Positions 34,235-63,939 of a DNA stretch of 64,000 bases are shown piece after piece (position 1 is the first letter of the stretch; each line of letters opens with the position of its first letter). The notes beneath the pieces are model-generated. The model saw nothing but the letters and a program-made list of their open reading frames with translations, did not search any database and was not told the origin of the DNA. The stretch is taken from positions 1 to 64,000 of the forward strand of contig JAHHIK010000038.1 in assembly GCA_019358935.1 (NCBI GenBank), read 5' to 3'. This DNA is from Tolypothrix carrinoi HA7290-LM1 (GTDB taxonomy: Bacteria; Cyanobacteriota; Cyanobacteriia; Cyanobacteriales; Nostocaceae). Position numbers and translations under genes: made by a program.

Positions 34235-35848
34235 TTACATCTCCGCGTTGAGGCGAATTTCTCGAATGTGGTTTTTTAATTGCGCTTCAAAAATTGTCTG
34301 ACTCATCAATGAGTAACCTGATTTATCTTGATTTTTAAAATTTTCCTCAATTAATCGTTCAGCTATATATTCCATCAAAACTGGGGTTTGTGCAAAGCCG
34401 GATGCTTGTCTTTCAATTAGCGATCGCCTTTGTAATAACTCTATAGCTTCTAATATTAATCGTTGCGAAACTCGTGGTATAATCTCTTTTTGCAATTTTC
34501 GCACTGAAACCAAATTGCGATTCAGTGCTAGCCAATGCATAATTTGCTTTTCCAAATTAGATAAACGATAAAACTGCTCATCTAAAATTGCCCGAATGTC
34601 GCCAAAAACCATAGTACCTTGTTCTAAAAATTCATATATATTACCAGCAAATAATTCTTGAATAGTTGTAGCAACTAATTTAATAAATAATGGATTACCT
34701 GCATACCACTCAATTAAAACTCTGCATTCGGATTCGTCAGAATCTGTAAACCCTTTTTCTTTGAGAATTTGCCAACTTTCTGCATTACTTAATCCTGTCA
34801 ATTTCCAAGAGCGAACAGGTAATTTTTTTCCTTGTAGCGCGGCAATTTCTTGAGGTTTTTCTCTACTGGTTAACACCAAGCAACTTTGATGTTGAGAGTC
34901 TCCTAATCTTCTGATTAACTCTCCATAATTTTCATAACCTTTAAGATACCGAATTTGCTTGGTAACATAACCAGAAGGATTTTTTACGTCTGGGTTGCTA
35001 GCTGGCATAGAGAGAGGATATTCTCCGATCAAGTCGGTATCGTTGCTATTGCTTAAAATCGAGTCTACACCATCTAATACAATTAGACAGCGTGAAGAGC
35101 GCAAACACTCAATTAGTTGGGAAATGTTGCTTTCGACACTTTCTGTACTTTGTGTTTGCGCTTCGGGAGATAAAAGCGAAATTAGTTGATTTAAGATGAC
35201 TTCTAGGGGTGGGGCAAGATTTAGCGATCGCCAAATCACAAATTCAAAATTTTCCTTAATTGCTTCTGCCAGCTTTACTGACAAAGCTGTTTTACCAATT
35301 CCACCCATACCTAAGAGTACCACTAATCGACAGCGCTCTTGCACAATCCATTCAGATAAAGATGCGAGTTCGCTAGTCCGTCCGTAGAATTTACTCACAT
35401 CAATCGCTTCACCCCAATTATGTCTTTGGGCTGTTTTCATCGTACCAAAATCAGCTTTGTTTTTCTCGGTTGTGATTATTTGATTGTTAGTCACATCTAT
35501 TTGAAACCAACCTTTTTTATAACCTGCTTTCTCTAGTAACTGAGTCACCCGACTCCAGTTTTTGACCTTAATGCTGCTTCCTTCTTGGTTACTCAGCATA
35601 TCTTCTATGTATTTATATAGTCCATTAGAAAGATAAACTCTCACAGTACTACTACTGCGACTTTTATAAACTGCATTAGCAATTTCTGCCGGACTAAAAC
35701 CACAAAGTAAACCTCTCAAAAATTTCTTTTCAACAGGTGTCAGAGCTTTTCCCTTTGCCGATGCCAAATCAACGTATAACTTTTCTAGCTCCCAATTATT
35801 TTTAGCCTCTAAAAAATCCTCTTCTATTTTATTTAAATTAGCTGTCAT
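34235..35848 (-). CDS. HTH + NB-ARC/STAND NTPase protein lacking a repeat sensor domain
   Basis: N-terminal HTH (SPAEIA...TVRVYLS), FYGR..EL, GMGGIGKT, LIVLD, LTSRE, GNPL. Confidence 0.85.
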   Translation of the reverse strand: MTANLNKIEEDFLEAKNNWELEKLYVDLASAKGKALTPVEKKFLRGLLCGFSPAEIANAVYKSRSSSTVRVYLSNGLYKYIEDMLSNQEGSSIKVKNWSRVTQLLEKAGYKKGWFQIDVTNNQIITTEKNKADFGTMKTAQRHNWGEAIDVSKFYGRTSELASLSEWIVQERCRLVVLLGMGGIGKTALSVKLAEAIKENFEFVIWRSLNLAPPLEVILNQLISLLSPEAQTQSTESVESNISQLIECLRSSRCLIVLDGVDSILSNSNDTDLIGEYPLSMPASNPDVKNPSGYVTKQIRYLKGYENYGELIRRLGDSQHQSCLVLTSREKPQEIAALQGKKLPVRSWKLTGLSNAESWQILKEKGFTDSDESECRVLIEWYAGNPLFIKLVATTIQELFAGNIYEFLEQGTMVFGDIRAILDEQFYRLSNLEKQIMHWLALNRNLVSVRKLQKEIIPRVSQRLILEAIELLQRRSLIERQASGFAQTPVLMEYIAERLIEENFKNQDKSGYSLMSQTIFEAQLKNHIREIRLNAEM

Positions 35849-50192: not shown

Positions 50193-50381
50193 TTGCTTGT
50201 GCATCCCGATGCAATGCTTGTGCATCCCGATGCAATGCTTGTGCATCCCGATGCAATGCTTGTGCATCCCGATGCAATGCTTGTGCATCCCGATGCAATG
50301 CTTATGCATCCCGATGCAATGCTTGTGCATCCCGATGCAATGCTTGTGCATCCCGATGCAATGCTTATGCATCCCGATGCA
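50193..50381. repeat. Tandem array of nine 21-bp palindrome-containing units (TGCTTGTGCATCCCGATGCAA)
   Basis: Units nearly identical (two G>A variants), no spacers. Confidence 0.95.
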
Positions 50382-55421: not shown

Positions 55422-58400
55422 ATGGCTAACAACATCTACGCACTTTTGGTTGGTATTGACGAATACGATCCGGAATCTACACCGCAAGTTCCCTCATTAA
55501 AAGGTTGCGTTAACGACATCAAAGCTGTGGAAGCTTATCTGCGCGATCGCATCACTAAAGATGGAAAATGGCAACTAGTTGAACCGACTAACCAATCTTG
55601 GATACTCACCAATGAACAAGCTACTCGTCAAGCAGTGATCGACGGCTTTTTACAGCATCTGTGCTCTTCAGACAGTGAAGATGTAGTCTTGTTTTATTAT
55701 GCAGGTCATGGCGCTCAAGAGAAAGCACCACAAGAATTTTGGCATTTAGAGGCAGACCATTTAGATGAAAGTTTAGTTTGCTACGATAGCCGTACAGAAA
55801 ATAGTCGAGACTTAGCAGATAAAGAAATAGCCTATCTAATCTCGAAAGTTGCAGAGAATAACCCTCACGTTGTCATCATTCTCGACTGCTGTCACTCCGG
55901 TTCGGGAACCAGAGATTTATCACCAGAAATTAGAGTGCGTCGTTCTCCGGTAGACTCCAGAGAACGTCCATTAAGCAGCTTTATTTTTGCCGAAGACACA
56001 ACAGCATTGAATGAATTGTTGAATTCTTCGCGCAGCTTGGAGCAGAAAACAACTGGTGTAACATTGCCTAAAGGCAAACACGTCATGTTTTCCGCTTGTC
56101 GTGATTATGAGTTAGCAAAAGAATACAAAGGAGAAGACGGTCAACCGAGAGGAGCTTTTTCTTACTTTTTATTGCAAACTCTCCAGCGGACTAATAATAG
56201 CATTACCTATCGAGATTTAGCGAGAAATCTCAATGCGTTGGTAAGTGGTAAAGTGAAGGAACAATCACCGCAAGTCGAAGCCACAGATTCAAAAGATTTA
56301 GACCAACCTTTCTTAGGTGGTGCAATCAAAGAACGTCCCAACTACTTTACCTTGACCCGCAGCCAAAACGATAATAGCTGGGTAATTGACGCAGGTGCTA
56401 TTTCTGGTATCCCGAAACCGTCTAAGGATGGAGACACTTTATTAGCAATATTTCCCGCTGCAAGTACTCCAGAACAATTAACTAAACTGGACCAAGCTTT
56501 AGGGGAAGCGCAAGTTATGCAAGTGCTGCCACAAAAGAGTAAAGTCAAAATTCTCAGTGGTAGCGTAAGCTTATCTCCAACTGAAACTTATTGGGCGATC
56601 GTTACTAACATACCATTGCCGCCTCTAAAAATTTACATCAGAAGCGAAGACAGCGAAAAAGCAGGTTTAGAACTCGTAAAACAAGCACTACAAACATCTG
56701 CACCCAATTCCAAACCTTCCTTATACGTCAGTTTAGTAGAAGACCCAAAAGAGGCAGATTACGATTTACTAATTCGTAAAGGTCAGTATTGGATTACACA
56801 GCCTAACGATCAACGTCCGCTAATTGCTCCGATTCCCGAAAACTCGACACAAGCCGGTTATACCTCGGAAAATGCTCGTGAAGTAGTTGTTCGTTTAGAA
56901 CATATTGCCCGGTGGACAAACATTCTCGAACTTTCCACCCCTGCAACTAGTAGCGTTAAAGCCGATGATGTAGAGATGGAAATCAGCGTCCTTTCCGGAC
57001 GACAAGAAACTTCGCTTAGTGGTGATGACAAAATAGCATCAGAAATGCGGCTAGAGTATACCTATGAAAATGATGAATGGGTAAAGCCAACTATCCAAAT
57101 CAAACTCACTAATAATAGCAATAAACCACTTTATTGCAATGTATTAGACCTTGCAGAAAGTTACTCTATATCTAGCAACTTGTTAGACGAATTCCAAGCA
57201 AGCAGCTTCAAAATTCCACCCAAAGGTTCAGAAAATAGCAACACTCTCGAAAGTGGCAACCTCGAATTGGTCATCAAAGATGAATATTTAGCATTGGGAA
57301 TTACTGAGTACAAAGATATATTCAAGCTGATAGTCAGCACAAGCGAATTTGATGCGAGTTTGCTACAACAAGATGGATTAAACCCCCCTCCTCCAACTCG
57401 TTCACTTGGAAGAGGTGGCACCCTTGACCGTTTAATGGCAGGGGTAAACAGTCGTGAAGCTGTCAGAGCCGAAGGCAGCTATGATAATTGGATGACTAAG
57501 GAAGTTTCGATTACCATAGTCTGTCCGCAAGAAGCGATCGCAATTCAATCTAATAGCAGCACTGCATTACAAAATGGTGTAGTTGAGGTGCAACCACATC
57601 CGAGTTTGCAAGCAAAAGTTAATCTCACTACTGTACCGCAAGCAAGCAGAGATTTAGGCAATTTGATTTTACCTGCAATTTTGCGGCAACAACCTCGTAT
57701 TACTGAATCCTTTCAATTTACCACCAGCCGAGGTAGCGATCCCGGCTTGAGTGCTTTAGAGTTAAGTGACGTAGCAGACCACACTGTAGTTACACCAGAT
57801 GCACCACTAAAATTACTAGTTGATACTCAATTAGCCGAGAATGAACACCTTTTACCGTTTGCTTATGATGGACAATTTTTCTTACCATTAGGAAGAGGTT
57901 CGCAAGCGATAGATGGCAAAACGGAAATTACTTTAGAAAGATTGCCAAAACCAACAGTTAGTAGTCGCAGCATACACGGTTCAATTCGGATTTTCTTTGA
58001 AAAAATAGTTAGCCAAAAATTAGGAAGTCCATTTGAATATCCAATTTTAGCTATAGCCGATGTAGTTAAAGTTGACAAAAAAGACAAAGTAACCTACGAA
58101 AAAGATAAGGAGATAATTAAAGCGCAAGTAGCGCAAGCAAAAAAAATTATCCTCTACATTCATGGAATTGTTGGGGACACTGCAAGTATGGTTCCCAGTG
58201 TGAATAATGCTTTGGTGGAAGTTGATAAAAAAGAGCTTTCAATTAAAGAGCGTTATGACGTAGTTTTGGCTTTTGACTATGAAAATATCCAAACTACAAT
58301 TCAAGAAAATGCCAAGTTTTTAGGGGAAAAATTGCAAGAAATTGGCTTGGGAGCAAACCACGGTAAACAATTGCATATTGTCGCACATTCAATGGGTGGT

Positions 58401-59258
58401 TTGGTTTCTCGCTGGTTTATTGAGAGACTAGGCGGCAATCAAGTTGTGCAACACTTAGTTATGTTAGGCACACCAAATGCTGGTTCACCTTGGCCCTCTA
58501 TACAGGATTGGGTTTTTACCGCTCTTGGTATCGGGTTGAATCAACTTTCGGCAATAGTTTGGCCCACGAAAATAGTAGCAGATTTACTGAAAGTTCTGGA
58601 AAATAATGATAAATCTCTGGAGCAAATGCAGCCAGATTCACCTATTTTGAAAGAACTTGCCGAAAATCCCGATCCTGGTGTTCCTTATACAATTATTGCC
58701 GGTGACAGGTCGGTGATGGCTGCTGCCAATGCAAAACTTCAAGCAGATAAGCAAATCAATCCACTCAAAGAACTGATGCAGAGGATGTTTGATCCATCTG
58801 TAAATAAAGTTGTAGATATGGCGTTCTTTAGTCAGCCGAATGATATAGCGGTGACTTTGACTTCGATCAAGAGCGTTAATTCTAAGCGTAAGCCTCAACC
58901 AACAATATTATCACCCGACACCGCCTGCGATCACCTCACCTACTTCACCCATCCTGCCGGCTTAACTGCACTATCTAGGGCACTTTACGAATCTCCCCAT
59001 GAAAATCAACCACCAACAGCATCAGCGACAACTGCCAATGTATTAATTATTGAACCCAAAGGAAATACCACACCAAAACCTGCTGAAACTTCTTCACAAA
59101 CCCAAAATCCTCTGCTAATTAGTAGCGCAATTATTACAGGAATTGCATTATTTATAGCAGGAGTTGCTATCTCTATTTTGTCGAACCGTTCTTTGCAACC
59201 ACAGCCAACTAGTCAAACCAGAAACAGTCAGATAGCTGTTAACCAACACTCACTCTGA
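55422..59258 (+). CDS. Caspase-family (C14) protease fused to an alpha/beta-hydrolase (lipase-like) domain with a C-terminal TM anchor
   Basis: ALLVGIDEY, GCVND, FYYAGHG, ILDCCHSG; YIHG, AHSMGG, LGTPNAGS, NDIAV, CDHLTYF; TM LLISSAIITGIALFIAGVAISIL. Confidence 0.9.
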   Translation: MANNIYALLVGIDEYDPESTPQVPSLKGCVNDIKAVEAYLRDRITKDGKWQLVEPTNQSWILTNEQATRQAVIDGFLQHLCSSDSEDVVLFYYAGHGAQEKAPQEFWHLEADHLDESLVCYDSRTENSRDLADKEIAYLISKVAENNPHVVIILDCCHSGSGTRDLSPEIRVRRSPVDSRERPLSSFIFAEDTTALNELLNSSRSLEQKTTGVTLPKGKHVMFSACRDYELAKEYKGEDGQPRGAFSYFLLQTLQRTNNSITYRDLARNLNALVSGKVKEQSPQVEATDSKDLDQPFLGGAIKERPNYFTLTRSQNDNSWVIDAGAISGIPKPSKDGDTLLAIFPAASTPEQLTKLDQALGEAQVMQVLPQKSKVKILSGSVSLSPTETYWAIVTNIPLPPLKIYIRSEDSEKAGLELVKQALQTSAPNSKPSLYVSLVEDPKEADYDLLIRKGQYWITQPNDQRPLIAPIPENSTQAGYTSENAREVVVRLEHIARWTNILELSTPATSSVKADDVEMEISVLSGRQETSLSGDDKIASEMRLEYTYENDEWVKPTIQIKLTNNSNKPLYCNVLDLAESYSISSNLLDEFQASSFKIPPKGSENSNTLESGNLELVIKDEYLALGITEYKDIFKLIVSTSEFDASLLQQDGLNPPPPTRSLGRGGTLDRLMAGVNSREAVRAEGSYDNWMTKEVSITIVCPQEAIAIQSNSSTALQNGVVEVQPHPSLQAKVNLTTVPQASRDLGNLILPAILRQQPRITESFQFTTSRGSDPGLSALELSDVADHTVVTPDAPLKLLVDTQLAENEHLLPFAYDGQFFLPLGRGSQAIDGKTEITLERLPKPTVSSRSIHGSIRIFFEKIVSQKLGSPFEYPILAIADVVKVDKKDKVTYEKDKEIIKAQVAQAKKIILYIHGIVGDTASMVPSVNNALVEVDKKELSIKERYDVVLAFDYENIQTTIQENAKFLGEKLQEIGLGANHGKQLHIVAHSMGGLVSRWFIERLGGNQVVQHLVMLGTPNAGSPWPSIQDWVFTALGIGLNQLSAIVWPTKIVADLLKVLENNDKSLEQMQPDSPILKELAENPDPGVPYTIIAGDRSVMAAANAKLQADKQINPLKELMQRMFDPSVNKVVDMAFFSQPNDIAVTLTSIKSVNSKRKPQPTILSPDTACDHLTYFTHPAGLTALSRALYESPHENQPPTASATTANVLIIEPKGNTTPKPAETSSQTQNPLLISSAIITGIALFIAGVAISILSNRSLQPQPTSQTRNSQIAVNQHSL

Positions 59259-59463
59259 CTAATTTCTACCAACTCCTGATAATTCTCGTTCCCGTGCAGA
59301 GCCAGGGAACGAGAATACTTAACATTACAAACTGTTAAAAATTAATAATTATTTTACCCTTTTTAATTATGAATTATGAATTATGAATTCATAATTAAAA
59401 ATATCCATTTTTTTGTGTAGCTAAAATTAATACACAAGCTCAGAAATTATAAATATTGCATCC

Positions 59464-62400
59464 ATGCCTGATATTAAACGTAGTTTCGCAGTACTTATTG
59501 GGATTAATCAATATATTAATAATATTCCAGAATTAAAAACAGCTTGCAATGATGCCCAAAAAATCGCCGAAACTTTAGAAAAAAAATACCACTACAACGT
59601 CCTCACCTTACTGGATACAGATGCTACTCACGCACAAATTAATAATTTGTTAACAGCTCTGGAAGCGCATACATTACCTTCTTCTGATAATAGTAAAATT
59701 CAAATTCAAGAAACTGACCGAGTATTCTTCTACTTTGCCGGACACGGTATCGCCTTAGATGCATTAGATAGCGCTGATGGTCCAACAGGCTTTCTTGTTC
59801 CTCAAGATGCACGTATGGATAATGACAGCAGTTTGCTACCTATGAAGCGACTGCACGATGCTTTAATTAAACTACCATGCCGTCATATATTAATTATCCT
59901 AGATTGTTGCTTCGCAGGCGCATTTCGTTGGGCAGGTAACAGAGATGCCGTGCGTCAAAATAAAGTATATCGCGAACGTTACGATCGCTTTATCTCTAGT
60001 TGCGCCCAGCAAGTAATCACCTCCGCCGGCGATGATGAAAAAGCCGCCGATTCGTTGTATCGATTTGGAGAACGCAACGAAGATTCGGGAAACTCCCCTT
60101 TTGCAGAATTACTTTTAAACGCGCTATCAGGAAAAGCAGATTTCAGCAGCGATGGAGTCATCACAGCTACGGAAATATACGTATATATACATGGCGAATT
60201 GGGCAAGACAAGCGTCAAGCAAACTCCAGGATTCTGTCAACTCATACGTCACGACAAAGGCGAGTATATCTTTCCCGTTCCTGGGTTTGACCCGAATAAA
60301 TTAGCACCAGCACCCGCACTCGATGAAAATACCAATCCTTACAGAGGATTGAACTCGTTTGAAGAAAAAGATAGCAGCCTCTTTTTTGGCAGAAAAGCCT
60401 TAATCGAAAAATTGCAAGCATTCATCATCAACCAACCGTTAACAGTAGTGCTGGGTGCTTCCGGTTCCGGAAAATCGAGCTTGGTGAAAGCCGGATTAAT
60501 TACGCAGTTAAAGGTGGGGCATGGGGCAATGGGCAATGGGCAATGGGAAAAAACGCGTTCCCAATTACCAATTACCAATTCCCAATTCCCGATGCCCCAT
60601 GCCCCATGCCCAATGCCCATTGCCCAATTACCAATTCCCCAAGAATGGCGCATTCTCGCTCCCATTCGTCCAGGAGAGTCTCCTTTCAAAGCTTTGAATA
60701 ATGCACTTTTACAGGAAAAGCTACCAACTTTCGTCCAGCCGAAGCTGCAATTTGAAGAAGAATTACAGACTCTTTATCAAAATATAAAAGCTTGGACTGA
60801 AGCTCATAAAAATGCTAAATTACTCCTCGTCATTGACCAGTTTGAAGAATTAGTAACTCTGTGCCGAAATGAAGATGAGCGCTTAAAGTTTATGTCGGGG
60901 TTAGCAAGAGCAATATCAGCTTTTCCCGAACAGTTACGCATTGTGGTGACACTAAGAAATGACTTTGAACCGCAATTTCGCAATACACCTTTAGAAGCTT
61001 ATTGGACAGCGGCAAGATTTATCGTGCCAGCAATGTCACGCTTGGAATTGCGCGATTGCATTGTCGAACCAGCTACCGCTAGGGTAATGTTTTTTGAACC
61101 GCCAACTTTAGTAGACCAAATAATTGATGAAGTAGCACAAATGCCCGGAGCGTTGCCGCTACTTTCTTTTACTTTGAGCGAACTATATTTAAAATATATT
61201 AAAAGTGCTAGAGAGGACAAAAGAAATAATCGGGCAATTACTCAAGCCGATTATGAAGAATTAGGTGGAGTGACACGCAGTCTCACGCAACGAGCAGACT
61301 ATGAATATGATGAATTAATTAAACTTGATTCTGCTTACGCTCACACTATTAAACACGTCATGTTACGGATGGTAGCTATAGGTGTTGGTGATTTGGCACG
61401 TCGGCGAGTGTTGTTATCAGAATTGGAATATCCCAAAGCAGAAAATACGCGGGTAAAGTTACTAATTGAGCGTTTTTTGGCAGCACGTCTGCTAGTAGGA
61501 GGACAAGATACTGAAGGTAACAGTTATGTAGAACCGGCTCACGATGTCTTAGTGCGGGGATGGCAAAAACTACTGACTTGGAAAGACCAAGAATTAGGTT
61601 CGTTGCTGCTGCAACGCGAACTAACACCGACTGCGAATAAATGGACAACTCAAAGACGAGATAAACAAGCGGTTGGTTTGTTGTGGAATAACGATCCGCG
61701 TTTACCGTTGGTTAAGCAGATATCAGAGTCTGATAAAAGTTGGCTGAATTCTATAGAGTTGGAGTTTGTTCAACGCAGCATCACAAGAAGACGAAACAAT
61801 CGGCGTCGCACAGTTGGTATTGTGAGTGGAGTTATTGCCTCACTGACTGGATTAACTATTTTTGCTTTGGTTCAACTTCAGTTGTCGCTGTTGTCGCAGT
61901 TACAGGAAAAAGCAGCCATAGCAGAAAATCGCCTACCTATAGCTCCTGTAGATGGACTGGTTTTAGCGATTCAGACTGCTGGTGAAAATCGTTCATTGTT
62001 ACCGTGGCACATATCGAACCCAGTGAAATCTAGTTTACTTTATGCAGTGCAAGCCACTAAAGAGGGAAATCAGTTGACAGGTCATAGCGATCGCGTCACT
62101 TCTATAGCTTTTAGTCCCGATGGGCGCTACATCGTCAGCGGTAGCGAAGACAACACAGTGCGTTTGTGGGATATGTCCGGTAAACAAATTGGACAACCAT
62201 TTACAGGTCATGCAAAACCGATTACATCTGTAGCTTTTAGTCCCGATGGGCGCTACATCGTCAGTGGTAGCGAAGACAACACAGTGCGTTTGTGGGATAT
62301 GTCTGGTAAACCAATCGGCAAATTATTTACAGGTCATACAAAACCGATTCAATCTGTAGCTTTTAGTCCCGATGGGCGTTATATCGTCAGTGGTAGTGAA

Positions 62401-63939
62401 GACAACACGCTGCGTTTGTGGGATATATCTGGTAAACCAATCCGCAAAGCGTTTGTCGGTCATACAAAACCTGTCTGGTCTGTAGCATTTAGTCGGGATG
62501 GAAAATACATCGTCAGTGGTAGTAGGGATAAGACAGTGCGTTTGTGGGATATTTCCGGAAATCCTGTAGGGAAACCGTTTGCAGGTCATACAGATTCTGT
62601 TTGGTCTGTAGCTTTTAGTCCAGATGGACGTTACATCGTTAGTGGTAGCGATGACAGAACAATACGCTTGTGGGATATGTCTGGCAAACCAGTAGGGCAA
62701 CCATTCCCAGGTAATAGAAGTGCTGTTTTATCTGTTCGCTTCAGTCCCGATGGGCTGTATATAGTTAGTGCCGGTTTTGACAGGATAGTGCGGTTGTGGG
62801 ATCTATCCGGCAATCTGATTGGAGAACCGCTTAAAGGTCATAAAAATCCGGTTTCATCTGTAGCCTTTAGTCGGGATGGGCGATATATTGTCAGTGGTAG
62901 TGGCGATCGCACAATCCGCTTGTGGGACATTAGCAATAAAATCGGGCAACCGTTGCGAGGTCATACAACTAATGTCGCATCTGTGGCTTTTAGTCCTTCG
63001 GGGCATTATATCGTCAGTGGTAGTCTCGATAAGACACTGCGCTTGTGGGATATTTCTGGTAAGTCGATTGGGCAACCATTTTTAGGTCATAAAAATTCGG
63101 TTACATCTGTAGCTTTTAGTCCAGATGGACGTTACATCCTCAGTGGTAGCGAGGACAAGACACTGCGCTTGTGGGATATTAAAGGTAATTCGATTGGACA
63201 ACCATTTACAGGTCATACAGGTAAAGTCTATTCTGTAGCTTTTAGTCCTGATGGGCGTTACATCGTCAGTGGTAGCGAGGACAAGACACTGCGCTTGTGG
63301 GATATTAAAGGTAATTCAATTGGGCAACCATTTACAGGTCATACACAGCCTACATTTTCTGTTGCCTTCAGTCCCAATAGTAAGATGATTGTTAGTGGCG
63401 GTGACGACAGAATGGTGCGCTTATGGGATCTTTCTGGTAAAGCGATCGCCCAACCATTCCAAGGTCATGAGGGTTCGATTTCATCTGTGGCTTTTAGTGC
63501 AGATGGACGTTATATCCTCAGTGCCAGTTACGACAGGACAATGCGCTTGTGGGACATTCAGGGTAAACCAATTAGACAAGCGTTTGTCGGACATGAGTTT
63601 GGTGTGACATCTGCCGCTATCAGTCGCGATGGGCGCTACATTGTTAGTGGTAGTCAGGACAAGAATGTGCGCTTGTGGAACTTTTCTGACAGCAATATTG
63701 GGCTAAACTTTCAAGGTCATACAAATAATGTCACATCTGTTGCCATCAGTCCTGATGGACGCTACATCGTTAGTGGTAGTCGAGACAAAACACTACGCTT
63801 GTGGCAAACTCGATGGGAAGATTGGTTAGAAGTTGCTTGCAACAACTTGCAAAATCATCCTGTGTTGCAAAACCCCCAGACAGATGAGGCTAAGGGAGCG
63901 AAAGATACTTGTGAAAAATATGTTTGGCGTGAGAAATAA
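59464..63939 (+). CDS. Caspase-family protease + nSTAND1-type NTPase + TM + 14 WD40 repeats
   Basis: FYFAGHG, ILDCCFAG; NPYRGL..F, FFGR, GASGSGKSSL, LVIDQFEEL, PGALPLL; TM after RRRNNRRR; 14 GH...WD repeats. Confidence 0.92.
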   Translation: MPDIKRSFAVLIGINQYINNIPELKTACNDAQKIAETLEKKYHYNVLTLLDTDATHAQINNLLTALEAHTLPSSDNSKIQIQETDRVFFYFAGHGIALDALDSADGPTGFLVPQDARMDNDSSLLPMKRLHDALIKLPCRHILIILDCCFAGAFRWAGNRDAVRQNKVYRERYDRFISSCAQQVITSAGDDEKAADSLYRFGERNEDSGNSPFAELLLNALSGKADFSSDGVITATEIYVYIHGELGKTSVKQTPGFCQLIRHDKGEYIFPVPGFDPNKLAPAPALDENTNPYRGLNSFEEKDSSLFFGRKALIEKLQAFIINQPLTVVLGASGSGKSSLVKAGLITQLKVGHGAMGNGQWEKTRSQLPITNSQFPMPHAPCPMPIAQLPIPQEWRILAPIRPGESPFKALNNALLQEKLPTFVQPKLQFEEELQTLYQNIKAWTEAHKNAKLLLVIDQFEELVTLCRNEDERLKFMSGLARAISAFPEQLRIVVTLRNDFEPQFRNTPLEAYWTAARFIVPAMSRLELRDCIVEPATARVMFFEPPTLVDQIIDEVAQMPGALPLLSFTLSELYLKYIKSAREDKRNNRAITQADYEELGGVTRSLTQRADYEYDELIKLDSAYAHTIKHVMLRMVAIGVGDLARRRVLLSELEYPKAENTRVKLLIERFLAARLLVGGQDTEGNSYVEPAHDVLVRGWQKLLTWKDQELGSLLLQRELTPTANKWTTQRRDKQAVGLLWNNDPRLPLVKQISESDKSWLNSIELEFVQRSITRRRNNRRRTVGIVSGVIASLTGLTIFALVQLQLSLLSQLQEKAAIAENRLPIAPVDGLVLAIQTAGENRSLLPWHISNPVKSSLLYAVQATKEGNQLTGHSDRVTSIAFSPDGRYIVSGSEDNTVRLWDMSGKQIGQPFTGHAKPITSVAFSPDGRYIVSGSEDNTVRLWDMSGKPIGKLFTGHTKPIQSVAFSPDGRYIVSGSEDNTLRLWDISGKPIRKAFVGHTKPVWSVAFSRDGKYIVSGSRDKTVRLWDISGNPVGKPFAGHTDSVWSVAFSPDGRYIVSGSDDRTIRLWDMSGKPVGQPFPGNRSAVLSVRFSPDGLYIVSAGFDRIVRLWDLSGNLIGEPLKGHKNPVSSVAFSRDGRYIVSGSGDRTIRLWDISNKIGQPLRGHTTNVASVAFSPSGHYIVSGSLDKTLRLWDISGKSIGQPFLGHKNSVTSVAFSPDGRYILSGSEDKTLRLWDIKGNSIGQPFTGHTGKVYSVAFSPDGRYIVSGSEDKTLRLWDIKGNSIGQPFTGHTQPTFSVAFSPNSKMIVSGGDDRMVRLWDLSGKAIAQPFQGHEGSISSVAFSADGRYILSASYDRTMRLWDIQGKPIRQAFVGHEFGVTSAAISRDGRYIVSGSQDKNVRLWNFSDSNIGLNFQGHTNNVTSVAISPDGRYIVSGSRDKTLRLWQTRWEDWLEVACNNLQNHPVLQNPQTDEAKGAKDTCEKYVWREK
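60515..60640 (+). repeat. In-frame STRR insertion within the STAND domain
   Basis: Inverted GGGCAAT / ATTCCCA / ATGCCCC heptamer tracts encoding GHGAMGNGQW...[17 protein letters not shown]. Confidence 0.85.

Follow-up and report, generated by a model that had tools for sequence, protein, structure and literature searches.

What might two caspase genes that stand side by side near the end of a cyanobacterial contig do together? The question is raised by the window analysed here, the 64,000 nucleotides at positions 1 to 64,000 of contig JAHHIK010000038.1 of Tolypothrix carrinoi HA7290-LM1 (GenBank assembly GCA_019358935.1). Gene 1 (55422..59258, 1278 residues) and gene 2 (59464..63939, 1491 residues) are both on the + strand, as are all of their features given below, and are separated by a gap of 205 bp; the contig ends 1.8 kb past gene 2. 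A reading made from the letters of the window, here called the sequence-only reading, had taken the two for an initiator and an executioner, with a sensor that activates its own caspase and thereby releases a membrane-bound lipase. Its description of two adjacent, co-oriented genes with intact His-Cys dyads was confirmed by the open reading frames (ORFs) and by the pairs H96/C157 in protein 1 and H94/C149 in protein 2. On balance, and with somewhat better than even confidence, we favor a two-step, Arg-specific proteolytic switch in which the STAND-caspase encoded by gene 2 would activate the caspase-hydrolase zymogen encoded by gene 1, for regulated cell death or arrest.

Protein 1 is predicted to be the executioner and effector, a caspase zymogen followed by a beta-sandwich, an alpha/beta-hydrolase and a tail anchor. 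The C14 caspase domain (residues 1-300; 55422..56321) was delimited by Pfam, an alignment to trypanosome metacaspase 2 and conservation, and residues 6-291 match Peptidase_C14 (E value 5e-22; 79 bits against a cut-off of 21.4). An AlphaFold2 model of residues 1-1195, made from 98 sequences, reached a predicted local distance difference test score (pLDDT) of 80.5. Its residues 1-303 resemble metacaspases (Z 27.3, root mean square deviation 2.9, 249 residues aligned) and its residues 870-1193 resemble alpha/beta-hydrolases (Z 17.3, deviation 4.3, 213 residues aligned). The hydrolase (58029..59000) is of the lipase type and belongs to DUF7379, which matched residues 906-1031 together with weaker matches to lipase-type families; it carries an oxyanion His-Gly at 914 and the triad S990/D1141/H1171. 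In the model, the region around the presumed catalytic Asp (residues 1126-1148) has a pLDDT below 50. All 24 diverse homologs have each of H96, C157, S990, D1141 and H1171, and so do 95-98 of the 98 close ones. The closest named homologs come from Spirirestis, Tolypothrix and Plectonema (88-91% identity), in agreement with a filamentous cyanobacterial host. A partial survey of the literature found nothing on DUF7379.

Caspase and hydrolase are joined by a middle region (residues 305-705; 56334..57536), which is common to lipase-less caspases of about 700 residues and ends in a DUF4384-like beta-sandwich, and by an all-beta domain (residues 708-868; 57543..58025) recognized from secondary structure, loops of low pLDDT and conservation. 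We propose that this all-beta domain is an inhibitory pro-domain in front of the hydrolase. For the end of the middle region the top ESM Atlas cluster (0.92) has DUF4384 in 17% of its members, which is a lead only. Structure searches with VIA-align and Foldseek returned matches that were taken up by the caspase and the hydrolase, and the middle domains were barely probed by them. A comparison of five regions of protein 1 with hhalign revealed no internal duplication. The order caspase, middle domains, hydrolase with a Ser/Asp/His set and tail helix, as first proposed, was thus borne out by Pfam, the model, conservation and hydropathy.

Protein 2 is the predicted sensor and initiator. Its C14 caspase domain (59464..60303) contains the dyad H94/C149, invariant in 31 of 31 sensors, and a conserved Arg near 160; the assignment to C14 comes from this invariant dyad and from homologs that lie next to gene 1 at other loci, which score E values of 1e-17 to 1e-14. 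The nSTAND1 NTPase that follows (60337..61665) was identified at residues 292-734 (PF20703, E value 3e-97, 327 bits), with an intact Walker A at residues 331-338 and Walker B at residue 458; of 32 sensors aligned, 31 retain the Walker motifs. A predicted transmembrane helix stands behind an Arg cluster (61816..61872), and 14 highly similar WD40 repeats, probably forming two propellers, complete the protein (62062..63822). Thirteen of the repeats were caught by a pattern, and their mean pairwise identity is 66%. This architecture too agrees with the original proposal. A 7-nucleotide tandem repeat, of a type found throughout the genome, lies in frame within the STAND domain (60558-60639); the ortholog at locus L154 has other sequence in its place.

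Both caspases retain acidic Asp residues (D32 and D155 in protein 1, D30 and D147 in protein 2). In an alignment they fall on the acidic pocket region of trypanosome metacaspase 2, and we take them to be the residues that form this pocket. The same alignment assigns C29 of protein 1 as the pocket Cys. From the acidic residues we predict Arg/Lys-directed proteolysis by both enzymes, and a general Arg/Lys preference is reported for metacaspases (PMC5756287).

In order to determine whether the pair is a conserved unit, gene neighborhoods were surveyed. A sample of 201 genomes of the order yielded 15 full-length gene-1 loci outside this genome, and extension to 401 genomes of the phylum yielded 10 more, nine of which were included (n = 24). 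At 20 of the 24 loci a caspase-nSTAND1 gene lies just downstream of gene 1 or is fused to it. At 18 it is a separate gene on the same strand within about 3 kb, broken in two cases, and at two it forms a single ORF of 3057 or 3238 residues with gene 1. Two further loci have CHAT-STAND genes in its place. A second set of 45 loci from named genomes, which overlaps the first and is not additive to it, includes Methylomonas, Betaproteobacteria, Planctomycetota, Deinococcota and Bacteroidota. Nineteen of these have a co-oriented caspase-nSTAND1 gene, seven a CHAT or other nSTAND1 gene, three another C14 gene and one a convergent sensor, while three lie at a contig edge. Across loci the partner protease varies (C14, CHAT-nSTAND1, CHAT-NACHT or TPR-CHAT) while gene 1 remains in place, and this singles out gene 1 as the substrate.

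Fusions tell the same story. A search for proteins longer than 2238 residues found 11 of 2271-3279 residues that contain the gene 1 module, seven of them with nSTAND1, and these seven show at least three domain orders. In a FastTree phylogeny of 79 gene-1 sequences, the fusions of the N-terminal type, the only readable ones, fall at no fewer than three separate places; six other fusion proteins are misplaced in it. Related genomes are not independent of one another, but chance does not account for a pair that recurs in several phyla and has been fused repeatedly. We conclude that the comparative survey supports the pair as a conserved unit, in line with the adjacency that the sequence-only reading had asked to see in other genomes. 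In two close relatives (L154 and L051) gene 1 is followed by two sensor genes in tandem, and of these this genome has an ortholog (86-95% identical) of the second only; sensors thus turn over quickly. Four proteins of about 2950 residues (P0128, P0129, P0131 and P0132), one of them from Isosphaeraceae, carry a peptidoglycan-binding domain and the whole gene-1 module at their C-terminus.

The lipase, which the sequence-only reading had as the part that is released, is better described as an add-on, since the lipase-less caspases of about 700 residues stand beside the same kind of sensor and the core is therefore the two caspases. These short caspases align over the whole of residues 1-705 of protein 1, T163-R164 included, and residues 705-1195 resemble stand-alone DUF7379 proteins of 440-560 residues (ESM Atlas 0.95); gene 1 is therefore made up of two fused modules. 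With a profile of the gene-2 caspase, 29 matches were obtained in 18 of the 201 genomes. Thirteen of them adjoin or are fused to a gene of the gene-1 type, a circular count, since neighbors of gene 1 had served to build the profile. Among the other 16, seven lie beside a lipase-less caspase of about 700 residues and two at contig edges.

A sister cassette was observed at 11 loci (L134-L138, L143, L144, L147, L149, L150 and L160), in which a lipase-less caspase of about 700 residues stands beside caspase-nSTAND1-WD40 or CHAT genes, and it is possibly a separate finding. Upstream of it there are often genes for a lysozyme and a D,D-peptidase that carry peptidoglycan-binding domains, as well as a conserved gene of 150-170 residues that gives weak PADLOC PDC-M35B matches. 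Paralogs of both genes occur in this genome (loci L049, L050 on G000:C117, L145 and L146). They include a truncated gene-2 paralog that is 68% identical and lies on another contig (L049, G000:C138:1284-3893), a distant gene-1 paralog that is split, and a couple of short caspases (about 700 residues), one of which lies beside a TPR-CHAT gene. Cross-talk in trans among these paralogs is possible.

If gene 2 cuts gene 1, conserved Arg residues of protein 1 are the expected targets, and six candidates were found. Five to six motifs of the Ser/Thr-Arg-small type persist in gene 1 across phyla. R660 and R678 lie in the DUF4384-like beta-sandwich, and R743, R770 and R849 in the all-beta domain. Arg or Lys is kept among 24 diverse homologs in 24 at R164, 24 at R849, 23 at R678, 23 at R743, 21 at R660 and 17 at R770. 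Most have Thr or Ser before the Arg and Asp, Ser or Gly after it, and in two Bacteroidota homologs several of the sites have switched to Lys together. R164 lies seven residues past the catalytic Cys, where the pLDDT is below 50 (residues 160-165). The PCaspase of a SAVED-CHAT system is reportedly cut at Arg153, seven residues past its Cys146, which is the same spacing as between C157 and R164. R164, R743 and R849 fall within three of the ten segments of the model with a pLDDT below 50, two of these being the loops 740-745 and 846-852 of the all-beta domain. With nine Ser/Thr-Arg-small motifs, where 2.1 would be expected, protein 1 stands first among the 952 long ORFs of the genome. A complex prediction of residues 1-705 of protein 1 with the protein 2 caspase scored 0.00 with controls that did not fold, and it counts neither for nor against the relay.

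All six candidate sites are N-terminal to the lipase, and no Arg is found from residue 1190 to the tail helix. A cut lipase would consequently stay anchored, and the release of a membrane-bound lipase, as it had been worded, is probably backwards. The notion of an initiator and executioner pair itself fared better: the conserved pairing, the fusions and the conserved candidate Arg sites all fit a relay.

The membrane helices of both proteins were called from hydropathy only. The tail helix of protein 1 (59127..59183; residues 1236-1254, Kyte-Doolittle mean 2.41) is optional in the family, being present in 43 of 112 homologs, with 8 of 120 left out as they lack the anchor motif used. "Membrane-tethered", as a general trait of gene 1, is for this reason too broad. 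The helix of protein 2 (residues 785-803) has a mean of 2.09, and among 32 aligned sensors it scores at least 1.9 in 17 (strong), 1.5-1.9 in 12 (marginal) and less than 1.3 in three, where it is taken as absent. The Arg cluster that precedes it and the lack of a visible signal peptide suggest an N-in topology, with which the caspase and STAND domains should be cytoplasmic and the WD40 repeats outside. Four fused homologs have a periplasmic-binding-protein domain in the sensor position, as would suit a sensor that faces outward; PMC10907252 mentions STAND targets that have periplasmic sensors.

The proteolytic switch that we favor would work as follows. A ligand would be bound by the WD40 propellers, probably at the outer side of a membrane; phage, a predator, a competitor or envelope damage are candidate triggers. 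The nSTAND1 domains would then oligomerize and cluster the cytoplasmic caspases of gene 2. This initiator would cut protein 1 at R164, just past the catalytic Cys, and activate it as SAVED-CHAT activates PCaspase. One or both caspases would next cut the loops with R660/R678 and with R743/R770/R849, which would separate the caspase and take the beta pro-domain off the hydrolase. The freed caspase may then degrade proteins broadly, and the hydrolase, at the membrane where it is tail-anchored, may hydrolyze lipids or esters. The direction of the relay, from gene 2 to gene 1, is suggested by the fusion of gene 2 to the sensor and by its replacement by unrelated CHAT proteases. A more elaborate, death-receptor-like version is possible, and we put it forward tentatively. 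In it extracytoplasmic WD40 repeats would act across the membrane, through a STAND oligomer, on a true initiator caspase; this would activate the executioner caspase, which would unmask its own fused membrane lipase. Sensors would be exchangeable and tandem, and at sister loci the same Thr/Ser-Arg-small code would also license lysins, a nuclease or a protein of the gasdermin-like kind.

Several observations weigh against the switch. Orphan copies of each gene exist: two of the 24 loci have neither a caspase-nSTAND1 nor a CHAT-STAND gene, 12 of the 45 named-genome loci lack a protease or STAND neighbor, and 7 of the 29 gene-2-type loci have no neighbor of the gene-1 type within about 6 kb. The gene 2 caspase has Ala27 where metacaspases carry the pocket Cys, whose loss reduces activity (PMC5756287). 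The motif enrichment in protein 1 is post hoc, the motif having been defined from these same sequences, and it is weak in companion genes (5 against 3.6 expected, 4 against 3.3 and 4 against 1.2). Nine further Arg/Lys columns are equally conserved, so conservation alone is no proof of cleavage; these nine are probably structural, and the conserved Arg residues at the candidate sites could be structural as well. The window is housekeeping DNA, and only 16 of 197 neighboring ORFs match PADLOC at 1e-10, mostly through generic kinase, ATPase or transposase domains. The loci of the pair are not in defence islands, and an anti-phage role is unsupported by this context.

Some of these points suit other explanations. 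The same switch could have a non-lethal output in signaling or development, such as lipid or envelope remodeling, filament breakage or a stress response. The position of the pair outside defence islands, a sensor that probably faces outward and is replaced by a periplasmic-binding-protein domain in the four fused homologs, and the lysozyme and D,D-peptidase genes of the sister loci would all agree with such an output. We nevertheless consider it unlikely, given that patchy presence (in 15 of the 401 phylum genomes), frequent breakage and insertions, tandem variable sensors and the gasdermin-like or MBL nuclease neighbors at some loci suit conflict systems better. A different role for gene 2 is also conceivable, in which it cuts nothing and serves as a scaffold or allosteric activator through a caspase heterodimer, with gene 1 processing itself. 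The missing pocket Cys and the 12 gene-1 loci without a protease neighbor are compatible with this, and so is the fusion P0122, which joins the sensor caspase to the middle and lipase parts of gene 1 and omits the gene 1 caspase. P0122 indicates that the division of labor is flexible. The invariance of H94 and C149 speaks against a mere scaffold, and replacement of gene 2 by an unrelated CHAT protease suits cutting better than a dimerization specific to one fold, which makes this explanation rather improbable in our view. Finally, the two genes might be independent modules, caspase-bearing conflict genes that merely cluster. Each is indeed also found alone, one case being the gene-2 paralog that this genome has on another contig. 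However, their order is fixed and the gaps are short across cyanobacteria, Methylomonas and Betaproteobacteria, fusion has occurred repeatedly and no wider island surrounds the pair. We therefore regard independence as very improbable and retain the proteolytic switch from gene 2 to gene 1.

The pair and its surroundings were also compared with known defence systems. Protein 2 matched no Avs model (PADLOC 2.0.0, library of 2023, at 1e-3), and the EACC1-caspase model NF047832 gave 48 and 68 bits against a cut-off of 140. No gasdermin ORF lies next to the pair, and no linked SAVED-CHAT with type III CRISPR or CBASS was found in the window or in this genome; a SAVED-CHAT search of the 401 genomes returned no match, and its control likewise gave none. 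A scan of viral contigs returned six caspase-domain matches, all weak. Promoters and terminators were about as numerous as chance predicts (22 against 19.3 and 7 against 7.8) and so lend no support to co-transcription. In two metatranscriptome runs, contigs of relatives cover gene 1 and little of gene 2; contigs are no measure of transcription, and these data were not used. An iron-type ABC transporter is encoded upstream, but a functional link with it was rejected: the transporter flanks the pair at L154, of the same genus, and none was seen beside the pair in other genera, by a comparison made without alignment.

Among distant homologs, homologous gasdermin-like genes lie directly upstream of gene-1 homologs in Bacteroidota (L082:7087-7854 and L083:2408-3193). 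The L082 matches are weak (PADLOC E value 1e-3; NCBIfam 24.5 bits against a cut-off of 100), and a Ser-Arg-Gly motif stands close to the C-terminus of the L083 protein. In two distant genomes the pair is followed downstream by an MBL hydrolase of the Avs1a/LmuA type (L092:5162-6319) and by a SAVED_CHAT-model match (L085:14268-16412), respectively. Elsewhere in the window are a 21-bp unit in nine near-perfect copies between two genes (50194-50381), an NB-ARC protein (34235-35848, - strand) and a HerA-domain protein (1430-2677, + strand).

The sequence-only reading had not recognized the pairing as a characterized system. We did not find it in the literature either, within a partial coverage of subscription journals and supplements; a supplementary figure of PMC12642450 could show the architecture, and six names sought in two supplements of that paper gave no match. 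Each step is known, having experimental precedents in the way SAVED-CHAT switches on PCaspase and in a caspase-activated hydrolase. The novelty lies in how the parts are wired, with a receptor caspase of the STAND-WD40 type that feeds a second caspase bearing a hydrolase of its own, with tandem sensors that can be exchanged, and with cut sites that are predicted specifically. Were the switch confirmed, bacteria would have a receptor-driven cascade from caspase to caspase that uses neither CRISPR nor a nucleotide messenger and is built like the apoptosome, and the uncharacterized DUF7379 hydrolases would gain a role. Were the death-receptor-like version true, cyanobacterial orthocaspases would gain a defined trigger, order and substrates. 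Catalogs of cyanobacterial caspase homologs have been made repeatedly; two such surveys (PMC2853523, PMC8283722) describe them by domain content, without activators or substrates in the portions accessible, and their main texts do not mention a lipase or hydrolase. The pair offers a minimal two-gene test system with named cut sites.

The nearest precedent for the first step is the SAVED-CHAT and PCaspase system of the Haliangium ochraceum type III-B CRISPR locus (bioRxiv 10.1101/2023.06.23.546230). There a sensor-fused clan CD protease oligomerizes and cuts a C14 zymogen with the catalytic residue Cys146; once cut, this caspase goes on to degrade numerous proteins. At some loci gene 1, too, is partnered by a CHAT protease. 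That system is triggered by cA3 and has CHAT as its initiator, whereas here a C14 caspase borne by an nSTAND1-WD40 receptor would be the initiator, and the executioner, unlike PCaspase, carries a hydrolase. Arg-specific executioner caspases have been shown for type IV Thoeris (bioRxiv 10.1101/2024.10.24.620036). For the second step the precedent is the LcCaspase-LcHydrolase pair (PMC12642450), in which an alpha/beta-hydrolase zymogen becomes active once a caspase-like protease has cut it after Arg within conserved motifs. Proteases of the LcCaspase type are, as here, fused to beta-propeller and STAND sensors, and in both cases the alpha/beta-hydrolase is genetically linked to a caspase-like protease. 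LcHydrolase is a separate protein of 296 residues with two conserved Arg-Gly cuts within the hydrolase fold, between oxyanion motif and nucleophile, whereas the DUF7379-type hydrolase of protein 1 is fused behind a second caspase and has its conserved Arg sites ahead of the hydrolase domain. A comparison by eye revealed no internal Arg-Gly cuts of the LcHydrolase type in protein 1, and the 76 residues from H914 to S990 contain no Arg column at 60% or more. Pairings of caspase with alpha/beta-hydrolase and nSTAND1 receptors had been predicted (PMC7159879, PMC8195603).

Two further groups of systems share parts of the architecture. The gasdermin-linked systems include C14 and CHAT proteases (bioRxiv 10.1101/2021.06.07.447441), and residues 4-617 of protein 1, its N-terminal half, match the PADLOC caspase model PDLC02987 (E value 9e-45), which is numbered between bGSDM and chat. 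We infer from this accession number that the model represents a gasdermin-associated caspase; unlike those systems, the Tolypothrix locus lacks a gasdermin. Avs and STAND-caspase receptors (KrAvs12 with EACC1, PMC12642450; nSTAND1 conflict systems, PMC8195603 and PMC7159879) likewise combine an N-terminal caspase, a STAND NTPase and a C-terminal sensor with an adjoining cleavable effector. Their cut partner is a small effector, while here it would be a second caspase with an intact active site and a hydrolase, and the Tolypothrix sensor, unlike theirs, lies past a predicted membrane helix. The likeness to the animal apoptosome, in which Apaf-1 and caspase-9 act on caspase-3 (PMC7159879), is an analogy only, given that the Tolypothrix pair has no CARD adaptor, a predicted specificity for Arg rather than Asp and a STAND domain of another clade. 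Within that analogy, both join WD40 sensing and STAND oligomerization to an initiator and then an executioner caspase.

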